Below the pieces are notes generated by a model. That model saw only the letters and a program-made list of their open reading frames with translations. It made no database searches and was not told the DNA's origin. The translations under genes and the position numbers were made by a program. 64,000 bases of DNA from an uncultured Gammaproteobacteria bacterium (GTDB taxonomy: Bacteria; Patescibacteriota; Microgenomatia; Daviesbacterales; UBA10151), in contig CAYMZD010000002.1 in assembly GCA_964394855.1 (NCBI GenBank), positions 60,575 through 124,574 on the forward strand, in the 5' to 3' direction. Position 1 is the first letter of the stretch; the number at the start of each line of letters is the position of its first letter. Positions 28,447 through 44,253 of the stretch are shown here, piece by piece.

Positions 28447-28474
28447 TTGACAAAAGTAATGTATAGTGTATAAT
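28447..28474 (+). promoter_or_regulatory. consensus sigma70 promoter TTGACA-16-TATAAT driving the TA cassette; predicted leaderless transcript
   Basis: ttgaca(28447-52), 16-nt spacer, tataat(28469-74). The antitoxin ATG at 28481 lies 7 nt after the -10. Confidence 0.5.
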
Positions 28475-28480
28475 GTATAT

Positions 28481-28735
28481 ATGATCAGGAAACAATTTTA
28501 TGTGACTCCGGAAATAGACAGAGCGCTACTTATTTTAGCTAGAAAAGAAGGTAAATCTGTAGCAGAAGTTCATAGAGAAATTCTTAAAAAGGGACTCCGA
28601 ACCAAAAGTATTAAAGCTAATCCCGCAAGCGTTTTATTTAAAATAACCGGAATCGCCAAAAAAGGACCCAAGGATTTATCCGCTAATCTATTTGACTATC
28701 TTTATGGAGATAAATCCCCTAATTATGGCAAGTAA
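28481..28735 (+). CDS. ribbon-helix-helix antitoxin (CopG/VapB-like)
   Basis: MIRKQFYVTPEIDRALLILARKEGKSVAEVHREILKKGL is an RHH fold signature. The track start at 28466 lies inside the -10, so the start is moved to 28481. 11-nt overlap with the downstream PIN gene. Confidence 0.55.
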   Translation: MIRKQFYVTPEIDRALLILARKEGKSVAEVHREILKKGLRTKSIKANPASVLFKITGIAKKGPKDLSANLFDYLYGDKSPNYGK

Positions 28736-29144
28736 AAAATTACTAGTTGACGCGGATGCTTTCGTAGCCTTGGTAAATTCGATTGACTCAAACCATCAAA
28801 AAGCCAAATTATTGAGAGATCAAATTAGCGATCAAGAGTTTTCATTGATGACTTCAGATCCTGCCTTTGGAGAGGCGATTACCGTCATTAGTCAAGATAC
28901 TGGTTTGGAATCAGCTACTCTGTTTGCAGAAGAAACATTAGTCAGTCAAGTAGAGATAATTGAAGTAGATGCCAGTTTACGAAGAAAAGCCTTGGATATT
29001 TTTAAAAAACAAACCTCCAAAAATTCCCGTTTTACAGACTGTATTAATATGGCAATTATGGAGGAGAAAAAATTAAATACCATTTTTAGTTTTGATGTTC
29101 AATACAAAAAGAACAAATTTAAAAGATTTGGGATAGATAAATGA
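28725..29144 (+). CDS. PIN-domain toxin (VapC-like ribonuclease)
   Basis: Acidic quartet consistent with the PIN fold (LLVDADAFV ... E ... TDCINMAIMEE ... FSFD); start at MASKK overlapping the antitoxin stop. Confidence 0.55.
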   Translation: MASKKLLVDADAFVALVNSIDSNHQKAKLLRDQISDQEFSLMTSDPAFGEAITVISQDTGLESATLFAEETLVSQVEIIEVDASLRRKALDIFKKQTSKNSRFTDCINMAIMEEKKLNTIFSFDVQYKKNKFKRFGIDK

Positions 29145-35764: not shown

Positions 35765-35825
35765 ACTTGACTTTTAAGATACTGACAGAGTAGAATATTG
35801 TTGTTAATAATCCAAAGGACCTAAA

Positions 35826-35853
35826 AAGGTGGGCTAGTCCCACCTTAATTTTT
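35826..35853 (+). terminator. rho-independent terminator after dnaJ
   Basis: aaggtggg-ctagt-cccacctt (8-bp stem) then aattttt, ending 4 nt before the nusA ATG. A possible promoter (ttgact-18-tagaat) lies at 35767-35800. Confidence 0.55.
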
Positions 35854-35856
35854 ACT

Positions 35857-36906
35857 ATGGCACAAGCTAGAACAGAATTTGTAGCTGCCCTAAATCAAAT
35901 AGCTTCTGAAAAAGGAGTAGACGTATCAGTTGTTTTGGATGCTATTAAGATTGCAGCTCTAGCTGCCTATAAAAAAGATTTAAGCATCCGTAGCCAACCC
36001 ATTCCAGAAGATATTGATGAATATACCTCTGAAGTAAACCCCACCACAGGCGAAATAACCATTTTCCAAGGTCAAAATAACGTTACTCCGCCTGGATTTG
36101 CCCGTATTGCTGCCTCAATTGCCAAACAGGTAATTTTGCAAAAACTGCACGAGGCAGAAAAAAGTGCTGTCATGTCTGAATATGAAAACAAAATTGGCAC
36201 AGTTATTTCAGGTTTAATACAGCGTCAAGAGGGCAACACGTATTTTATTGATTTGGGGAGAGCAGAAGGAATGATGCCACCCCAGGAGCAGGTGAGGAGT
36301 GAAATTTATCAGCCTAATATGAGGATGAAGTTTTATATCAAAGACATAAGAGAAGAAAGCCATGGTTTGGAAGTAATAGTTTCTCGTAGCGATCCGGGTT
36401 TAGTTAAAGGTCTTTTTGCCATGGAGGTGCCGGAAATTCAATCAGGCAGTGTAGAGATTGTGGTTTTGGCTAGGGAAGCTGGTTCTAGAACTAAAATTGC
36501 CGCCTCCTCCAGTCAAGATGGTGTGGATCCGGTAGGTTCTTTAGTGGGACAAAAAGGAGTGAGAGTTCAAGCAGTTACTCAAGAGCTGGGAGAGGAAAAA
36601 ATTGACATCATTACTTACTCCGACGATCCGGCCCGTTTTATCCAGGCAGCGCTTTCTCCAGCCAAAGATGTTCAGGTTCGTTTAAACAAAGAAGAGAATG
36701 TGGCTAAAGCTTTAGTACCTAACTCTCAACTATCTTTGGCCATTGGTAAAGGTGGACAAAATGTGCGTTTAGCAGCCAAGCTGACTGGTTGGAAAATTGA
36801 TATTGAAGGATTGGAAGAGGAGGGAACGGGAGAGCAAAAAGAAGAGCCTCAAGCTGGAACTCAACCCCCTGATGATGTAAAAGCTGATAAAAAAGAAAAG
36901 AAGTAA
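35857..36906 (+). CDS. nusA: transcription termination/antitermination factor NusA
   Basis: NusA N-domain, S1 ([21 protein letters not shown]) and KH1/KH2 ([23 protein letters not shown]), acidic tail. Confidence 0.9.
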
Positions 36907-36910
36907 AAAT

Positions 36911-38365
36911 ATGGCAGAAATGACACGTCCGCCCATAGTCACTATACTCGGCCATGTTGACCATGGCAAAACTACCCTACTTGATTTTATCAGGAAATCC
37001 TCTGTAGCAGCAAAGGAACATGGTGGGATTACCCAGCATATTGGTGCATATCAAGTTGAACATGATGGTAAATTAATTACTTTTATTGATACTCCTGGAC
37101 ATGCTGCTTTTGAAAAAATGCGCTCTAGGGGCGCTAAAGTGGCAGACATTGCAGTTTTGGTGGTGGCAGTAGATGATGGGGTGATGCCACAAACTATTGA
37201 GGCTATCAAACACATTCAGGAGGCAAAAGTCCCCATGATTGTAGCTATTAATAAAACAGATTTACCTGGCATAAATGTAAAAGTACAGCTGGAGAAGATT
37301 AAAAAGCAACTTTCAGACCAAAAAGTTTTAGCAGAAGAATATGGAGGAGATGTGCCCATAATTTCACTTTCTGCCAAAACCGGTGAAGGTGTGGATAAAC
37401 TCTTGGAGATGATCAGTCTGTTAGCAGAGCTGCATGAGCTTAAAAGTGAATCTGATATAGCGCCATCAGGAGTAGTGATTGAGGCTAATTTAGATAAATC
37501 CAGAGGCCCGCTGGCCACACTTTTAATAAGAAATGGCACTTTAAAAAAAGGTATACAGATTATAGTGGGTGGAGTAAAAGGTAAGATCAAGGGTATGTTT
37601 GATTTCAATGGGAAGAGTATAGAAGCGGCTGGCCCTTCTACTCCGGTGGAAGTGCTTGGACTTGAGAGTGTTCCAGGGGTGGGTGCTACTTTGGGACAGG
37701 AAATGGAACAAGAATCAAGAATGAAGCAGCAAGAGCTAAGCTTACTTGAAAAATTAAAGGCAGGAGAAAGTAAAACTCTAAAAGTGATTATTAAAGCTGA
37801 TAAGCAAGGATCGCTAGAGGCTATTGTCCATTCTTTGGACAAAATTAATAAAAATGCCAAACTGATAGAAGTTATTTCAAGCGGGACAGGAGATATATTG
37901 GAGGGTGATGTGAAGCTGGCTTCGTCTGTGGGGGCGATCATTATTGGATTTAATGTCAAGGTGGTACCAACCGCTGTTAAAATGGCTGAAACAGAGCATG
38001 TTTTAATAAGAACCTACAATATTATATATGAGCTGCTCTCGGAGCTAGAAGATGTTTTGGAGGGGATGTTTAAGGTGGGGCAAGTAGAGGAGATTTTAGG
38101 CAAAGCTAATATTATTGCTGAATTCCCCTTTGGAAAGTCAGAGCGAGTTCTCGGGTGTCGGGTCATTGAAGGAGTAATTAGTAAAGGATCAAAAATAAGA
38201 GTGAAAAGGGATGAAGAGGTAGTGGGCGAGAGTAAACTAAAGTCCTTAAGGGTTGTGAAAGATGAAGTGCAAAAGGCAGAAAAGGGTCAAGATTGCGGCA
38301 TGCTTTTTGATCCTGCCATAGATTTCCAAATAGGGGACACAGTAGAATCCTTCAGGGTAATATGA
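36911..38365 (+). CDS. infB: translation initiation factor IF-2 (short form lacking the N-terminal extension)
   Basis: G-domain [28 protein letters not shown]; C-terminal beta-barrels. Confidence 0.9.
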
Positions 38366-39393
38366 TAGAGAACTTTGATCTTTTCAGACCGCTACCATTT
38401 CTCGACACCACCCGCCAGTTGGCCAGACAAGCAACAGGAAGAGTGGGGCTTGAAGCCATGGTTTGGTATCCAGACCCCCCAACCTATCAATTTGTTAACA
38501 TGTTGGAGGAGGCTGCTAAAAGACAAGTTCAAGCACAGGCAAAAATAGATTACTATTCTTTGATGACCACTGATTTTCACAATAATCTTTTCCCCATGCC
38601 GCAACTAAGAAGAGAGAGAGGAAGAAAGACTCAAGAGATGGTTCAGAGGATGAGGAAGGCTGGAGTGTCAGTAGATCTTTTAAACCCCCCCAGTCTTTTG
38701 CAAAGATTAATACCCCAGTTGGGCAGAAACCATCGCAAAATAGGTTTAATTGATGGTGTTGGTTTTGTAATGGGTTTTAATCTTTCCAAATACAATTTTG
38801 ACTGTGAAGATATAGCAGTAGCTTTAACTGAACCACAAGCAGTAAAAAGATTAGCTGAAGTTTTTGAGGAAGCAGGTCTGGTGGAAAGAGATGATCGAGA
38901 GATTTACTGCGGCGGGAACACTTATTTATTAGTTGATTATGGTCGGGTTGGTCAATCTCTAATTTTAGATCGGGCAGTGGAGATGGTGAGGGGGGCTAGG
39001 GACTACGTGAGGTGGGTTAATCTTTTTCCTCCCAATGGTCGATTGGAAGTTGAGATGGCAAGAGCATCCAAAAGAGGGGTTGATGTGGAGGGAATTATTA
39101 CCAGGCCAGTTTGGGTTAGAAAAGCCAGGTGGGATATCAGGTTAATGCAGCTTGTGAATAGTCTCCAGTCTTATTCTCTTGGTAATCAGTTAGCTTTGGG
39201 ATATCACAATCCTGATATTCATGCCAAAGTTCTAGTAACTGATAATCAAACATTGGTAGGTTCACATAATTTAGTTTGGGAAGGTGTCTGGGCCGGCACA
39301 GAGGAGTTAGACATTTTTTCTACTAATCCTATTCTGGAGAGAAAATTAAATAGATATTATGCCCAACTTAAACTAGGTAGTCGGGCAGCTTGA
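38362..39393 (+). CDS. phospholipase-D superfamily protein with two HKD motifs (cardiolipin-synthase-like, no TM segment)
   Basis: HRKIGLIDGVGFVMGFN and HAKVLVTDNQTLVGSHN (HxKxxxxD...G(S)xN). ATGA overlap with the infB stop. Confidence 0.6.
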   Translation: MIENFDLFRPLPFLDTTRQLARQATGRVGLEAMVWYPDPPTYQFVNMLEEAAKRQVQAQAKIDYYSLMTTDFHNNLFPMPQLRRERGRKTQEMVQRMRKAGVSVDLLNPPSLLQRLIPQLGRNHRKIGLIDGVGFVMGFNLSKYNFDCEDIAVALTEPQAVKRLAEVFEEAGLVERDDREIYCGGNTYLLVDYGRVGQSLILDRAVEMVRGARDYVRWVNLFPPNGRLEVEMARASKRGVDVEGIITRPVWVRKARWDIRLMQLVNSLQSYSLGNQLALGYHNPDIHAKVLVTDNQTLVGSHNLVWEGVWAGTEELDIFSTNPILERKLNRYYAQLKLGSRAA

Positions 39394-39437
39394 TAGGGGT
39401 TGACTCTTATGGGTTATGGGTGTAAAATCCAGACATC

Positions 39438-40430
39438 ATGAAATACGATAGTCAACTAATAGAGTTGAAAAACCTGCTTCCGTCTGCCAAAAGCATTTTA
39501 ATTGCCTTACCTAGCAACTGCGATATGGACCGCTTCGCCGCCGGGCTGGCCCTTTTTTTATCATTCAATGCCCAAGGTAAGGAAGTTTCAGTAGTTTGTG
39601 ATGACACAATTCATGTGGCCCAGTCTCATCTTTTTGGGGTGAACCATGTCCAAAAAAATATACCCCAAACTCAAGGCGGTAATTTTGTTATCAGCTTGGA
39701 GGGAGTAGCTGTCCCCAACTCATCCTCCCCCCAAGGAGGACAAGCTCCAGCCTTGGAAAAAATGGATTATGTGGTAGAAGGCAATAATTTAAATTTAGTT
39801 TTCTATATTTTACCAGGTCAAACTTTTCAGCCTTCAAGGATAGTGCCCCATTATCAAGGTAGCGGTTTTAACCTAATTTTTACAATTGGTGCTGCCAATT
39901 TAAACCATTTGGGAAATATATATTTACAAAATCAGGGAGCTTTTTCTGGTGTTCATGTAGTTAATATTGATATTCAAGCGGCCAACACCTCCTTTGGCCA
40001 AACTAATGTAGTTGATAGCGCAGCTTCTTCTGTGGCTGAAATAATGACAGATGTGGTGGGAGCACTGGGGTTGCCTTTTGATGCAGATATTGCTTCAAAT
40101 TTATTGGCGGGAATTTTTGAGGCTACCTCCAATTTGACTTCACAAAATGTTAGTGCAGATACGCATCTCGCGGTGGCCAATTGTTTAAGAATTGGCGGCA
40201 GAAAACCGGAAGTCTTACAAAATGCAATACCCGCTAGCGGAGGTTTTGATTTAAGCAGTTTGATCAGCCCCAAACCCACAGTGGAAGCTTTTACTGCTCC
40301 GCCTATATCCAGTGAGCCACAACCTTCTCCAGAAGAAAGACCATCAGGGGAAGGATTGGCTGCTGAAAGTATCGAACCAGAACCAGGTTGGTTAACCCCT
40401 AAAGTTTTCAAGGGCGGTTCTGTGGGTTAA
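39438..40430 (+). CDS. degenerate NrnA-like DHH-family protein (DHH motif replaced, no DHHA1 domain) with Pro/Ser/Glu-rich tail
   Basis: Aligns from memory to NrnA around motif I (ILIALPSNCDMDRFAAGLAL ~ ILHRHVRPDPDAYGS) and motif III (VVNIDIQAANTSFGQTNVVDSAASSVAEIM ~ KIDHHPNEDPYGDLLWVDTSASSVSEMI). DHH is changed to DIQ, motif II and IV Asp residues are substituted, and the GGGH/DHHA1 domain is missing. Confidence 0.4.
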   Translation: MKYDSQLIELKNLLPSAKSILIALPSNCDMDRFAAGLALFLSFNAQGKEVSVVCDDTIHVAQSHLFGVNHVQKNIPQTQGGNFVISLEGVAVPNSSSPQGGQAPALEKMDYVVEGNNLNLVFYILPGQTFQPSRIVPHYQGSGFNLIFTIGAANLNHLGNIYLQNQGAFSGVHVVNIDIQAANTSFGQTNVVDSAASSVAEIMTDVVGALGLPFDADIASNLLAGIFEATSNLTSQNVSADTHLAVANCLRIGGRKPEVLQNAIPASGGFDLSSLISPKPTVEAFTAPPISSEPQPSPEERPSGEGLAAESIEPEPGWLTPKVFKGGSVG

Positions 40431-40538: not shown

Positions 40539-40808
40539 ATGCCACTTGATGTAAAGAAAAAACAAAAGATTATTGAAGAGTTTGCTACCAAAAAGGGTGA
40601 TACAGGTTCTCCAGAGGTTCAAGTAGCACTTTTAACTGAACAGATTAAAAACTTGGCAGCTCACCTAAAAGAGCACCCGCATGACGTTCACTCCAGACGT
40701 GGCCTTTTATCTATGGTCAATAAAAGAAGAAGGCTGTTGCAGTATTTATTAAAAAAAGATGAAGAACGTTACAAGACAACGATTGACAAGCTTGGTTTAA
40801 GTAAGTAG
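40539..40808 (+). CDS. rpsO: 30S ribosomal protein S15
   Basis: [57 protein letters not shown] matches S15. The track's TTG-start extension (40467) is probably 5' leader. Confidence 0.85.
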
Positions 40809-40905: not shown

Positions 40906-43209
40906 ATGTCGAATATCATTACTAAAGAAATTGACCTAAATGGTCGAACGCTCAAGTTGGAAACAGGTAAGCTTGCTTTGCAGGCTAATTCCTCTGTGGT
41001 AGCCTCTTGGGGGGAAACAGTAGTTTTGGTGACAGTTTCCACCCAACCTTCACCAGAGGCCATAGCTTACTTTCCCTTATCAGTGGAGTTTGTGGAAAAA
41101 CATTATGCGGGGGGAAGAATTTCCTCTTCCAAATTTATCAAACGCGAGTCCAGGCCCTCTGATGAAGCTATTTTAACAGGTAGATTGATTGACCGCTCCA
41201 TCAGACCACTTTTTCCCAAGGATTTTCACCAAGAAGTTCAAGTGATAGTGACTGTGCTATCAATTGACCAAGCCAATGATCCTGACATTTTAGGCTTAAT
41301 TGGCACATCAGCAGCCCTGTCTATTTCTGCCATTCCTTGGCAGGGCCCATTAGGTGGTGCCAGAGTAGGTGTTAGTGATGGTACTTTGGTAGTTAATCCT
41401 ACCATTCAAGAGGCAGAACATCTTCAATTAGATGTCTTTGCGGCCTCAACTAAAGATAAAGTGGTGATGGTTGAAGCTGGAGGAAAGGAAGTGCCTGATG
41501 AGAAAGTTTTTGAAGCCATCAAGAAGGCTCACCAAGAATCTCAAGCCATAATTGGCCTCATAGAAGAGTTTACCAAAAAGGTTGGCAAAGAAAAACTAAC
41601 CTATTCTTCTTTGGCAGAAGAGGTGGAAGAGGCAATTTTAGAAGAAGTTAAAACCATAGCCAGAGAAAAAATTGAAGCAGCTTTATTTGATTCTGAACAC
41701 CCTTGGCATGAAGCAACAGGAGAAATAATTAAGACAGAACTAGCCATAAAATATGCAGAGGTTTTAACACCACAAATTGTATCTGGAGTATTTGATAAAG
41801 TGGCCAAGGAGATCATGAATGATGCTATTTTAAAGCAGGGTAAAAGAGTCGATGGAAGGGCTATGGATGAGATAAGGCCTATCTCCATTGAAGTAGGAGT
41901 ATTGCCTAGAACTCATGGTTCTGCCCTTTTCCAGCGTGGAGACACCCAAGTTTTATCAGTAGTCACTTTGGCGGCGCCATCTCTATCTCAAACCATTGAG
42001 GGTATGACAGGCGAAGAGCAGAAAAGATTTATGCACCATTACAATATGAGTATTAACCCATTTGCTACAGGTGAAGTAAAAAGAATTGGTGCTCCCAATA
42101 GAAGAGATATCGGCCATGGTGCACTGGTGGAAAAAGCCCTGAAAGAAGTGATGCCATCAGAAGAAAGTTTTCCTTATGCCATTAGAGTAGTTTCGGAAGT
42201 ATTGGCAGCCAATGCCTCCACTTCTATGGCCTCCCTTTGTGCCTCAACCTTGGCCCTGCTAAATGCGGGAGTTCCCATAAAAGAACCAGTGGCTGGAGTG
42301 GCCATGGGACTTTTATCAGACGAACAAAAGTTTCAAGTAATTACAGACATGCGGGCAGTGGAGGATTTTTATGGGGAGATGGATTTTAAGGTGGCTGGTA
42401 CCAAAGATGGTATTACTGTTATTCAAATGGATACAAAACTAGCAGGTTTATCCTTTGAAATTATTCAGCAGGCGCTAGATCAAGGTAAAAAGGCTAGATT
42501 GTTGATTTTAGATAAAATTAATCAGGCTGTGCCCAGTGTTGGTCAACTTTCTCCTTTGGCACCCAGAGTAGAAATTATTCATATAAAACCAGAAGATATT
42601 GGTAGCTTAATTGGGCCGGGGGGCAAAAATATCAACTCCATCATTGCCAAAACCAAAGCAGCAATTGATATCGAAGATGATGGAACAGTGATGGTTTCAT
42701 CAAGTAATGAGGAGTCTATCAATAAAGCCATGGCCGCCATAAAAGGGATGTTCCAAGAGATTAAGGTCGGCGAGGAGTTTATGGGTAAAGTGGTGCGTTT
42801 GGCTCCTTTTGGGGCTTTTGTGGAAATTTTACCTGGTAAAGACGGGTTAGTCCATATATCCCAAATGGCCCCAGGCCATGTGGAAAAAGCAGAAGATATA
42901 GTATCTGAAGGTCAGGAAGTCAAGGTCAGGGTGACTGAAGTTTCTCCAGATGGCAAGGTGGGTTTATCAATGCTTTTTGGAGACGATGTTAAACCAGAAA
43001 GAGAAGGCTCGCCTCGCTTCGCGGGCGGAGCAGGAAGACCTTCTGGTCGAAGCAGAGGTTTAGAGGGTGCTAGAGGTGGATTTGGAAACCGTCCTAGGTT
43101 TGGCGGAGAAAGACCAGGATTTGACAGAAGAAGGCCCGGTGGTTTTAGAGCTCGAGGACCACGTACAGGCGGGTTCAACCGCGGGGGTCGTGGCGGATTT
43201 AATAGATAA
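40906..43209 (+). CDS. pnp: polynucleotide phosphorylase (PNPase) with C-terminal Arg/Gly-rich (RGG-type) tail
   Basis: Two RNase-PH domains, KH (GPGGKNINSII) and S1 (GKVVRLAPFGAFVEILPGKDGLVHISQM), then ~60 aa of RGG/RGGF repeats. Confidence 0.9.
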   Translation: MSNIITKEIDLNGRTLKLETGKLALQANSSVVASWGETVVLVTVSTQPSPEAIAYFPLSVEFVEKHYAGGRISSSKFIKRESRPSDEAILTGRLIDRSIRPLFPKDFHQEVQVIVTVLSIDQANDPDILGLIGTSAALSISAIPWQGPLGGARVGVSDGTLVVNPTIQEAEHLQLDVFAASTKDKVVMVEAGGKEVPDEKVFEAIKKAHQESQAIIGLIEEFTKKVGKEKLTYSSLAEEVEEAILEEVKTIAREKIEAALFDSEHPWHEATGEIIKTELAIKYAEVLTPQIVSGVFDKVAKEIMNDAILKQGKRVDGRAMDEIRPISIEVGVLPRTHGSALFQRGDTQVLSVVTLAAPSLSQTIEGMTGEEQKRFMHHYNMSINPFATGEVKRIGAPNRRDIGHGALVEKALKEVMPSEESFPYAIRVVSEVLAANASTSMASLCASTLALLNAGVPIKEPVAGVAMGLLSDEQKFQVITDMRAVEDFYGEMDFKVAGTKDGITVIQMDTKLAGLSFEIIQQALDQGKKARLLILDKINQAVPSVGQLSPLAPRVEIIHIKPEDIGSLIGPGGKNINSIIAKTKAAIDIEDDGTVMVSSSNEESINKAMAAIKGMFQEIKVGEEFMGKVVRLAPFGAFVEILPGKDGLVHISQMAPGHVEKAEDIVSEGQEVKVRVTEVSPDGKVGLSMLFGDDVKPEREGSPRFAGGAGRPSGRSRGLEGARGGFGNRPRFGGERPGFDRRRPGGFRARGPRTGGFNRGGRGGFNR

Positions 43210-43230: not shown

Positions 43231-44253
43231 ATGGATAATCCTGTCCAAAATACAGATGAGTTAGTACAAAAAATTACTCAAGCCAATCTCCCTAAAGAAG
43301 TTGCAGAAAGATTACTGAATTTATTGAAGTTTCCAGGTCAAGGTGTAGAGCTAGAAAAGTTAATTGAATATATTGATTTTGTTTTAAGCTTACCTTTTAA
43401 TAAATCCAGTCAGGATATTCTAGATTTAGGAAGGGCCAAGCAAATTTTAGATAAAAACCATTACGGTTTAAAAACAGTCAAAGATAGAATTTTAGAGTAT
43501 TTGGCTGTTTTAATCTTAAATGCCAAATCAGGCAAACAAGAGAGTTTACGGGCACCAATTCTGCTATTTGTGGGGCTGGTGGGAACTGGTAAAACTTCAA
43601 TTGCTTATTCGATTAGTGAAGTCCTGGGTAGGCCTATTTTTAGAATTCCTTTTGGAGGAGTGGGAGACCCGCTGCAACTTCGTGGACAATCCCGAGTTAA
43701 ACCTGATGCAGAGCCGGGTCAAATTATGAAAGCTTTAAAAGTTTTAAAGGTAAACAATCCAATTATTTTGCTTGATGAGATAGATAGAGTGGCAGAAGAG
43801 GGGAGGGTCGATATGATGGGAGTTTTGGTTGAACTGTTAGATCCCCAACAAAATCATGCTTTTTTAGATCATTATTTAGATTTTCCATTTGATTTATCCA
43901 GGATTTTGTTTATCGCCACAGCCAACAATACCGGCAATATCGCCACAGCAGTGATGGACAGGCTTGAACCTATTCAAATGCCTGCTTATAGTGACGGCGA
44001 AAAATTAATCATTGGCAAAAACTATCTTTTACCCCAGGCCGTGGAAGAATCTGGGCTAACAGCCGGTCAACTGGTGATAGATGAGATGGTTTGGCCACAG
44101 ATATTAAGACCATTAGGTTTTGATGCAGGCATCAGGTCCCTGCAACGAACCCTACAAGGTTTAACTCGCAAAATAGCTAGGCAGGCAGTAGAAGGTAATC
44201 TTGGACCATTTACCATTACAACACAAAATATTGGAGAATATTTAATAGACTAA
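43231..44253 (+). CDS. stand-alone Lon-type AAA+ ATPase module (no Lon N-domain, no protease domain)
   Basis: Near-colinear match to the Lon AAA+ core (LDKNHYGLKTVKDRILEYLAV, Walker A GLVGTGKTS, FGGVGDPLQLRG, Walker B ILLDEID, LDPQQNHAFLDHYL, ATANN ... MDRLE). The ORF ends with TAATG coupling to rnj; no S-K protease dyad region follows. Confidence 0.7.
   Translation: MDNPVQNTDELVQKITQANLPKEVAERLLNLLKFPGQGVELEKLIEYIDFVLSLPFNKSSQDILDLGRAKQILDKNHYGLKTVKDRILEYLAVLILNAKSGKQESLRAPILLFVGLVGTGKTSIAYSISEVLGRPIFRIPFGGVGDPLQLRGQSRVKPDAEPGQIMKALKVLKVNNPIILLDEIDRVAEEGRVDMMGVLVELLDPQQNHAFLDHYLDFPFDLSRILFIATANNTGNIATAVMDRLEPIQMPAYSDGEKLIIGKNYLLPQAVEESGLTAGQLVIDEMVWPQILRPLGFDAGIRSLQRTLQGLTRKIARQAVEGNLGPFTITTQNIGEYLID

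Follow-up and report, generated by a model that had tools for sequence, protein, structure and literature searches.

Organisation of the nusA-pnp locus

The window, the whole stretch of 64,000 nt that was analysed, comes from a Daviesbacteria (CPR) genome and contains a nusA-infB unit followed by a gene of the PLD superfamily, a degenerate NrnA-like DHH gene, rpsO and pnp. The following features were assigned to this part of the window.

35767-35811: promoter-like site upstream of nusA
35826-35846: terminator-like hairpin upstream of nusA
35857..36906, + strand: nusA, first gene of the nusA-infB unit (Pfam NusA_N, KH_5, KH_1)
36911..38365, + strand: infB, encoding a short IF-2 of 484 aa (Pfam GTP_EFTU, IF-2, EF-G_D2)
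38362..38365, + strand: ATGA overlap of infB stop and PLD start (...gta ata TGA / ATG A...)
38362..39393, + strand: two-HKD PLD-superfamily gene, ClsB-like, soluble, 343 aa (NCBI HY386_01040, annotated 'hypothetical protein')
38731..38781, + strand: HKD motif 1, HRKIGLIDGVGFVMGFN, aa 124-140 (H124, K126, D131, G138, N140)
39220..39270, + strand: HKD motif 2, HAKVLVTDNQTLVGSHN, aa 287-303 (H287, K289, D294, G300, S301, N303)
39400..39428, + strand: promoter-like element TTGACT-N17-TAAAAT before the DHH-like gene (consensus scan)
39438..40430, + strand: degenerate NrnA-like DHH gene (weak Pfam DHH match, 14 bits; tblastn similarity to Anaerolineales NrnA)
40539..40808, + strand: rpsO (S15), 89 aa (Pfam Ribosomal_S15)
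40906..43209, + strand: pnp (PNPase; Pfam RNase_PH twice, KH, S1)

The IF-2 of the window is 66-74% identical to the IF-2 proteins of 18 Daviesbacteria loci and of the related genome L001. In the alignment the DHH-like protein has DIQ in place of the DHH motif and lacks the DHHA1 domain. Neither Rfam nor tRNA scans gave a match in the 64-kb window. The PLD gene is probably the last, translationally coupled cistron of nusA-infB, and we infer co-transcription only from the ATGA overlap and from the fact that neither a promoter nor a terminator was predicted.

The PLD gene encodes an intact two-HKD protein

The open reading frame 38362..39393 is a real and intact gene. Identical DNA was recovered from three independent assemblies, which excludes an assembly artefact. 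GC and GC3 of the gene agree with those of the neighbouring genes, and the N-terminus of the protein can be aligned with its family. Pfam PLDc_2 matched the protein in two stretches (53.8 bits, E 2.4e-14, cutoff 27) and PLDc with 27.1 bits (cutoff 21.9). As both scores exceed the Pfam cutoffs, the PLD assignment is no chance match. The protein shows the bilobal pseudo-dimeric alpha/beta PLD fold and two motifs of the superfamily pattern HxK(x)4D...G(G/S)xN. Among 66 members of its family H124, K126 and D131 of the first motif are invariant and N140 is kept in at least 90%; in the second motif H287, G300 and N303 are invariant, while K289 and S301 are kept in at least 90%. A PDB search with the single PLD sequence gave no real match.

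The protein is basic (pI 8.95) and has no transmembrane segment, the maximum Kyte-Doolittle mean over 19 residues being 0.76. Thus several statements of the original prediction were confirmed: both quoted HKD motifs are present, the protein is soluble, and the ATG of its gene shares bases with the stop codon of infB.

The infB junction is an insertion hot spot

The canonical gene order is nusA-infB-rbfA-(nrnA)-truB-ribF-rpsO-pnp. It is found in full at the Anaerolineales locus L029, which reads infB-rbfA-nrnA-truB-ribF-rpsO-pnp. Daviesbacteria have kept the backbone nusA-infB-...-DHH-...-rpsO-pnp, but their loci lack rbfA, truB and ribF, the DHH gene is degenerate, and in the window lineage alone a PLD gene occupies the rbfA slot. 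In agreement with the original prediction, tblastn with Anaerolineales and Limnochordia queries detected no rbfA or truB in the 64-kb window, nor was ribF found, and comparison with L029 places the PLD gene in the position of rbfA. Loss of rbfA has been reported across the whole class Microgenomatia (PMC12641178), so its absence here is no local loss.

A common gene order, dnaJ-nusA-infB-DHHlike-rpsO-pnp-LonAAA-RNaseJ, was observed at 18 Daviesbacteria loci, and neither an ORF of the PLD family nor a remnant of one was present at the locus in these 18 species representatives. The contigs of 17 of them span the junction between infB and the DHH-like gene, and in all 17 infB is followed by the degenerate NrnA-like gene with no PLD gene in between. 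The junction measures 31-129 nt in seven loci and about 300 nt in three, and the remaining seven carry insertions of 0.9-2.1 kb. Inserts that could be identified encode VapB/PIN (VapBC), Phd/YafQ, AbiEii or a DDE transposase; the others are hypotheticals. In every relative, whether or not an insertion is present, the promoter-like element seen here at 39400..39428 lies directly 5' of the DHH-like gene. In the window it follows immediately after the PLD stop codon and so delimits the insertion site on its distal side. The junction between infB and the DHH-like gene is therefore an insertion hot spot in Daviesbacteria.

Duplicated remnants of the infB 3' end were seen in three loci (L013, L023, L068). 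These duplications are att-like and flank other insertions.

The exact rbfA position of the PLD gene, together with an ATGA coupling to infB that is kept in relatives whose PLD proteins are 65% and 74% identical, could point to an enzyme that took over the RbfA slot through a role in translation initiation or 30S maturation, via IF-2 or the ribosome. The original prediction had implied such a special link to IF-2 and RbfA, and this part of it did not hold. As a candidate for RbfA itself (PF02033) the PLD protein failed: Pfam found no RBFA domain, it has no similarity to RbfA, and tblastn with two RbfA queries yielded nothing in the window. rbfA is lost class-wide, yet the PLD gene is missing from all of the junction-spanning related species, and the same junction accommodates unrelated genes. 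Distant members of the family, with identities to the window protein of about 33% or lower, are not adjacent to infB and occur in unrelated contexts; elsewhere the family is not found beside translation genes, EF-Tu occurring once among 104 neighbour genes of 30 family loci. Furthermore, four-nucleotide overlaps join 6 of the 49 same-strand gene pairs in the window, many of them unrelated. A role in translation is thus extremely improbable and close to refuted by synteny. The PLD gene does not replace RbfA; it is a passenger specific to its lineage, located in a local hot spot for insertions. That close relatives lack it at the infB locus is also one half of what the original prediction had named as speaking against it.

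The order of events may be pictured as follows. After rbfA, truB and ribF had gone in Daviesbacteria, infB would have come to abut the degenerate nrnA-like gene, which is probably its ancestral neighbour in this group and is served by a conserved promoter of its own. The PLD gene would then have been captured, in one sublineage, between the infB stop codon and this promoter, and its position would be historical and not functional.

Distribution and history of the PLD gene

At this locus the PLD gene is restricted to the window lineage and three other sequences. Two of these, L069 (PLD 74% identical) and L001 (65%), share the ATGA overlap with infB. In L068 (47%) an infB-end remnant of only about 25 nt plus the ATGA precedes the PLD gene. 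A neighbour-joining tree of six proteins groups the window and L001 as sister taxa in 189 of 200 bootstraps, and the identity of their two PLD proteins (65%) matches that of the DHH-like and LonAAA proteins (64-69%). According to this tree, in which identity differences are small, a single gain of the PLD gene in one sublineage appears probable. The DHH-like fragment of the L068 host counts against a single gain, since it is not specifically closest to the window.

Alternatively, the gene could be ancestral in Daviesbacteria and have been lost repeatedly, or it could have spread laterally, integrating site-specifically at the 3' end of infB. Besides the L068 fragment, the divergence between the window and L001 would fit this, as it almost equals the divergence from genomes without the PLD gene. 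Att-like duplications of the infB end around other insertions, and tyrosine recombinases beside 6 of the 30 family loci, would agree with lateral spread. Against this stand the lack of PLD remnants at the 18 PLD-less loci and the monophyly of the window and L001. Moreover, the PLD gene of the window is flanked neither by repeats nor by a duplicate of the infB end, and no integrase was found at its locus. We regard ancestral presence or lateral spread as rather unlikely.

A discrete family of soluble two-HKD proteins

The PLD protein is a member of a discrete and so far uncharacterised family, made up of soluble proteins of about 340-370 aa with two HKD motifs. At E<1e-30 the family has 281 cluster representatives, each of full length. 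The family HMM separates members (at least 273 bits) from other PLD proteins (at most 155 bits), and PLDc_2 was matched by all 66 members examined. A weak, internal hydrophobic stretch was detected in only one of 152 representatives.

A word-indexed homologue search with the PLD protein returned only four proteins, and a search with the 66-sequence profile gave 19 matches swamped by generic PLD words. The alignment of close relatives found no match in GTDB genomes or JGI metagenomes. No match was obtained in an alignment scan of viral contigs, or by tblastn against phages; tblastn against plasmids gave just four matches (24-27%). Neighbours of the 30 family loci were enriched neither in lipid metabolism genes nor in defence genes. 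Some members adjoin nucleotide-metabolism genes (Maf, Ham1, pur genes, a dihydroorotase-like gene).

Relation to characterised PLD enzymes

Among E. coli proteins the family HMM scored ClsB highest (91.9 bits), followed by ClsA (78.4), ClsC (52) and PssA (33.7). The commonest NCBIfam models in the family were bac_cardiolipin and ClsB, each found in 63 of 66 members. E. coli ClsB has no TM domain; it makes cardiolipin from two PG and can also form PG from PE (PMC12846801). It shares with the PLD protein two HKD motifs per chain and the lack of a transmembrane segment. As the best-scoring characterised protein, it is matched by the family HMM over profile positions 15-336. Nevertheless, pairwise identity is only about 27% over 166 aa, the PLD protein is about 70 aa shorter, the spacing from D to GxN is one residue shorter in each of its motifs, and it sits in a separate family. 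With the ClsB equivalog model (NF008427) it scored 46.1 bits against a curated cutoff of 281, and the best E-value of this model over the 66 family members, 3e-20, is well short of 281 bits. Judged from these profiles, ClsB, a cardiolipin synthase without TM segments, is the characterised enzyme nearest to the family, but the score lies far under the cutoff for orthologues. The originally proposed cardiolipin-synthase type is supported to the extent that this branch is the closest.

Other assignments were rejected. The ClsA-type model (TIGR04265) gave 22.6 bits where 290 are needed, and the N-terminal TM helices are missing. The model of PssA, a type I phosphatidylserine synthase (NF006946), did not match the window protein and gave weak matches in 8 of 66 members; structural similarity to PssA (3hsi, 8yr5) is high, but identity is only 12-18% and PssA is about 100 aa longer. 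Identity to the PLD of Serratia plymuthica (7e0m) and to vaccinia F13, a palmitoylated viral envelope protein, amounts to 12-16%, and in the 7e0m alignment the domains pair in swapped order. The nucleases Nuc and NucT have about 155-180 aa with a single HKD motif and act as homodimers, whereas the PLD protein unites both HKD motifs in a single chain of 343 aa, and NucT could be aligned with its C-terminal half only. Scores for DISARM DrmC (16.6 bits, cutoff 133) and for DpdK of the Dpd system (20.7, cutoff 100) were low, and partner genes are not adjacent. PADLOC reported weak matches to DrmC, MkoB and DpdK that cover one generic PLD domain only, and for this reason a defence-system reading was set aside.

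A phosphodiesterase acting on nucleic acids, comparable to Nuc/NucT, PLD3/4, Zucchini or DrmC and serving as defence cargo or in RNA turnover, has nevertheless to be considered. It would be consistent with the basic pI, with matches of the DrmC model in 56 and of NucT in 39 of the 66 family members, with the weak PADLOC matches, with the TA and Abi genes at the same junction in relatives and with the nucleotide-metabolism genes beside some family members. An RNA-turnover enzyme would also suit an operon of RNA metabolism (nusA, infB, dead nrnA, rpsO, pnp, RNase J). However, Cls-type synthases outrank nuclease models in the sequence profiles, all nuclease and defence models stay far below their own cutoffs, and the PADLOC matches are limited to that single domain. 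In the window no DISARM or Dpd partner, helicase or methylase adjoins the PLD gene; phage or viral relatives were not found, and defence genes are not enriched around the family loci. We consider a nuclease possible but unlikely.

A more specific version holds that such a phosphodiesterase arrived on an integrative element with the infB 3' end as attachment site and was recruited to the RNA-metabolism operon, where, co-translated with IF-2, it perhaps replaces the short-RNA or 5'-end degradation of its dead NrnA-like neighbour. Since the dead DHH protein is also present in all 18 PLD-less relatives, there is no pattern of compensation. This version is very improbable.

We lean, with some reserve, towards a captured ClsB-like enzyme of the PLD superfamily at the infB hot spot, now the last coupled cistron of nusA-infB. 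The similarities to characterised enzymes, all remote (11-27% identity), count against the ClsB-like part of this reading, as do the toxin-antitoxin and defence-type cargo at the infB junction of other genomes and the missing lipid-metabolism enrichment near family loci. The protein is probably a functional cytoplasmic or peripheral-membrane HKD enzyme, either a ClsB-like phosphatidyltransferase or a phosphodiesterase. By analogy with the superfamily, both HKD halves would build one active site, in which one histidine would attack the phosphodiester to form a covalent phospho-histidine (phosphatidyl-enzyme) intermediate that an acceptor alcohol or water may then resolve. CPR bacteria are lipid-auxotrophic, and the cell must scavenge lipids. 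The likeliest substrates would be membrane glycerophospholipids, with a cardiolipin/PG-type head-group exchange on lipids scavenged by the CPR cell.

Implications of the locus

The practical value of these results is mostly negative: the striking adjacency of PLD and IF-2 genes in the rbfA slot is a lineage-specific insertion and thus unfit for guilt-by-association. Three by-products of the analysis are of modest value. The discrete, sizeable and uncharacterised family of soluble ClsB-like proteins bears on a possible remodelling of scavenged phospholipids by lipid-auxotrophic CPR bacteria. The other two are the infB 3' end as a Daviesbacteria insertion hot spot with att-like duplications, and an NrnA-like protein, conserved and catalytically degenerate, that persists in what remains of the eroded nusA-infB-...-pnp operon.

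The PLD gene and its surroundings

Directly after infB comes the PLD-superfamily gene; the genes beyond it, as assigned by Pfam, are a DHH-like ORF (weak match), rpsO, pnp, a gene for a Lon-like AAA+ protein and the RNase J gene.

Selected features of the window
36911-38365, + strand: infB, preceded by nusA; short IF-2 with GTP_EFTU, IF-2 and EF-G_D2 domains
38362-39393, + strand: PLD-superfamily ORF, 343 aa; two HKD motifs, Pfam match
39400-39428: promoter-like element TTGACT-N17-TAAAAT, directly upstream of the DHH-like gene
39438-40430: DHH-like gene, a weak DHH-like ORF (degenerate NrnA)
43231-44253: Lon-like AAA+ gene, 340 aa; AAA+ and Lon lid domains only

A 1.15-kb stretch is base-for-base identical in two further independent assemblies, and the PLD protein is identical to the NCBI entry 'hypothetical protein HY386_01040 [Candidatus Daviesbacteria bacterium]'. 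The GC content (0.422) and GC3 (0.352) of the PLD gene equal the values of the neighbouring genes. As the original prediction had stated, its ATG overlaps the infB TGA (...GTA ATA TGA / ATG A), which can be read directly in the sequence, and both quoted HKD strings are present (aa 124-140 and aa 287-303). The PLD gene is the terminal ORF after infB, and neither a promoter nor a terminator was predicted between the two. Its sole Shine-Dalgarno-like sequence, AGGG, falls within conserved IF-2 C-terminal codons, and the gene is probably expressed by termination-reinitiation at the infB stop. Since 4-nt overlaps were found for 6 of the 49 same-strand neighbour pairs in the window and 1-nt overlaps for 4 more, functionally unrelated pairs included, the ATGA overlap is the local norm for tightly packed genes.

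At 28466-29144, between lepA and the hrcA-grpE-dnaK-dnaJ cluster, a small antitoxin-like ORF precedes an ORF with a PIN domain, together a VapBC-type pair.

The infB locus in related genomes

IF-2 was used as an anchor to retrieve 56 loci from GTDB species representatives, 18 of which are Daviesbacteria-type with an IF-2 66-73% identical to that of the window. These 18 loci share with the window the backbone dnaJ-nusA-infB-DHHlike-rpsO-pnp-LonAAA-RNaseJ, some contigs stopping before the last genes. None of them (0/18) contains a PLD-family ORF detectable with the HMM of the PLD family (E<1e-3), and neither tblastn nor blastn revealed PLD remnants in them. Thus, the infB-PLD adjacency that had been considered unexpected is missing from all 18 species-representative loci.

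The Anaerolineales locus L029 carries the Pfam-confirmed order infB-rbfA-nrnA(DHH+DHHA1)-truB-ribF-rpsO-pnp. Compared to this order the PLD gene does occupy the slot of rbfA, as proposed. The reported lack of rbfA and truB holds for Daviesbacteria as a group, which we take to be members of Microgenomatia and which are without rbfA, truB and ribF at this locus. A 2025 survey described three classes, Dojkabacteria, WWE3 and Microgenomatia, as having lost rbfA, der and era (PMC12641178). According to this Microgenomatia-wide loss, the absence of rbfA is old, class-wide and unconnected with the PLD gene.

Further peculiarities of the locus concern IF-2 and the Lon-like protein. IF-2 comprises only 484 aa and begins at the G domain, a short form common to all Daviesbacteria relatives, while IF-2 ORFs from the retrieved non-CPR genomes have roughly 600-1100 aa. 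The Lon-like protein is devoid of the N-terminal LON domain and of the protease domain, and the position of its gene between pnp and RNase J is conserved among Daviesbacteria relatives.

The product of the DHH-like gene is an NrnA orthologue in degenerate form. Its DHH motif is changed to DIQ (DNQ, DSE or DTQ in relatives), and a P/E-rich tail with the conserved end EPGWLTPKVFKGGSxG stands in place of the DHHA1/GGGH domain. The position of the gene is kept in all Daviesbacteria loci passing the junction (17/18 species representatives, the window and L001, a locus with a close PLD relative). Motif loss together with the kept position suggests that the protein is a conserved pseudo-enzyme which has taken on a new role.

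Insertions at the infB 3′ end

Of the related loci, 17 lie on contigs that run across the junction between infB and the DHH-like gene. The junction measures 31-129 nt in seven of them and about 300 nt in three, while the other seven carry 0.9-2.1-kb insertions of unrelated content.

Content of the insertions at the junction
L013: VapB, PIN toxin and a 382-aa hypothetical protein
L014: Phd/YafQ
L023: AbiEii toxin
L028: DDE transposase
L018, L021, L025: hypothetical proteins

A promoter-like element (TTGACT/TTGCAA, about 17 nt, TAAAAT/TAGAAT), conserved in sequence and position across Daviesbacteria, directly precedes the DHH-like gene in every case. Therefore every insertion, the PLD gene included, sits exactly between the infB stop and this element, and in the window seven bases separate the PLD stop from it. 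Given this conserved predicted element, the DHH-like gene, rpsO and pnp would begin a transcription unit of their own, apart from nusA-infB.

In two insertions the final 44-50 nt of infB (window equivalent 38320-38365) recur as a degenerate second copy. In L013 (8415-10598) this copy lies at the distal edge of the insertion. That of L023 (8435-9405) follows closely on the AbiEii gene, about 0.9 kb into an insertion of 1.6 kb, and matches with 92% identity over 38 nt (E 1e-10). Furthermore L068 (1-95), whose PLD protein is 47% identical to that of the window, retains an infB-end remnant of ~25 nt with ATGA directly upstream of the PLD gene, and no IF-2 reading frame precedes the remnant in this contig. 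This pattern resembles the att-site duplication left by elements that integrate into a gene 3′ end and may have arisen in that way; no recombinase was identified. The infB 3′ end in Daviesbacteria thus looks like an integration hot spot, and the striking infB-PLD synteny is explained by operon erosion and hot-spot insertion.

Age and spread of the infB-PLD arrangement

The close PLD clade consists of only four clusters, with 100%, 74%, 65% and 47% identity to the window protein. In L001 (65%) the nusA-infB-PLD-DHHlike-rpsO-pnp-LonAAA-RNaseJ order is complete and infB and the PLD gene share an ATGA overlap, as they do in the window; the PLD ORF of L001 also extends across the promoter region into the DHH-like start. 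The 74% relative (L069) is on a short contig with the IF-2 C-terminus and the ATGA overlap, and in the 47% relative a DHH-like gene lies downstream of the PLD gene. The window and L001 are sister lineages in 189 of 200 bootstraps of a six-protein NJ tree, and the per-gene identities of infB, DHH-like and pnp agree with this, by small margins. The divergence of the two PLD proteins (65%) matches that of the DHH-like (64-69%) and LonAAA proteins (67-68%). The distribution is most simply explained by a single, fairly old capture in one Daviesbacteria sublineage with vertical inheritance since then; repeated loss of the PLD gene or its lateral spread via the hot spot could also have led to it.

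Identity and predicted chemistry of the PLD protein

The HKD assignment was borne out by HMM search, since PLDc_2 (53.8 bits, E 2.4e-14, two stretches) and PLDc (27.1 bits) both exceed the Pfam gathering scores. A PLD fold was confidently predicted. Kyte-Doolittle means over 19 residues stay at or below 0.76 throughout the protein (pI 8.95); therefore no TM segment is present, in line with the proposed soluble protein.

In an exhaustive profile search 2983 representatives passed E≤1e-3, of which 281 also passed E≤1e-30. Among the best 150 listed, nearly all have about 320-390 aa and align over essentially their full length. H124, K126, D131, H287, G300 and N303 as well as D63, D192, G194, S199 and E315 are invariant in a 66-member alignment, and N140, K289 and S301 are kept in at least 90% of the members. 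Thus, selection acts on the catalytic machinery throughout the family. The family forms a discrete group, as its HMM scores at least 273 bits for metagenome members vs. at most 155 bits for other PLD proteins.

Among characterised proteins the family HMM scored highest against E. coli ClsB (91.9 bits, nearly the whole profile covered), followed by ClsA (78.4), ClsC (52.0) and PssA (33.7 bits). The top PDB sequence-profile match was the Serratia plymuthica PLD 7e0m (56.9 bits), ahead of NucT (39 bits) and Nuc (38 bits). NCBIfam models for bacterial cardiolipin synthase (63/66 members), ClsB (63/66), DrmC (56/66), NucT (39/66) and PssA (8/66) all matched far under their curated cutoffs, e.g. ClsB with 46 bits on the window protein vs. 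a cutoff of 281. The window protein failed the membership tests for ClsB, ClsA, PssA, Nuc/NucT, DrmC and DpdK. It is a compact, soluble two-HKD PLD-superfamily enzyme, by sequence nearest to the TM-less cardiolipin synthase ClsB, yet no ClsB orthologue. The label 'cardiolipin-synthase/PLD-type' is hence right at the superfamily or ClsB-nearest level. The gene, hitherto unannotated, adds a new member to a known superfamily; NCBI labels the subfamily generically as 'phosphatidylserine/phosphatidylglycerophosphate/cardiolipin synthase family protein'.

Enzymes of this superfamily act via a covalent phospho-histidine intermediate that reacts further with an alcohol (transphosphatidylation) or with water. 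The two-HKD active site is intact in the window protein and conserved across the family, and there is no membrane anchor. Judged by its sequence and predicted fold, the protein works like a ClsB-type enzyme: it would form the phospho-histidine intermediate, to be resolved by alcohol or water. Judged from the similarity ranking, its substrate would most likely be a glycerophospholipid, with ClsB-type cardiolipin/PG chemistry. We give a lipid substrate roughly an even chance; a nucleic acid appears rather unlikely, and other phosphodiesters make up the rest. ClsB joins two PG into cardiolipin and also produces some PG from PE (PMC12846801), and PLD and Cls-type enzymes have already been invoked in CPR genome papers for interconverting acquired lipids (PMC6031116).

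Genomic contexts of the wider family

Distant family members occur in diverse genomic contexts. Among 104 proteins flanking 30 family loci, tyrosine recombinases (6) and FkbM methyltransferases (4, between tandem PLD paralogues) were the commonest, and the rest occurred once or twice. Genes for lipid synthesis, defence or the ribosome were not enriched in this set, and phage and viral collections yielded no relatives. The link to translation implied by the position next to IF-2 therefore finds no counterpart around these 30 loci.

Tandem PLD paralogues ~1 kb apart, with an FkbM-type methyltransferase-sized gene between them, are present on several family-bearing contigs (L009:5923-9089, L094:1736-4837, L096:2880-6032), and those of L009 adjoin GT2 glycosyltransferases. 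The tandem-paralogue subclade might, as a first hint, have a role connected with a glycolipid or polymer of the cell envelope. On the same L009 contig (14458-15716), from a family-bearing MAG, L22 starts 12 nt after L2, so that S19 would seem to have no place in the S10 operon. In two different family clusters (L077:5001-7098, L078:4912-7038) a dihydroorotase-like amidohydrolase gene directly precedes or overlaps the PLD gene.
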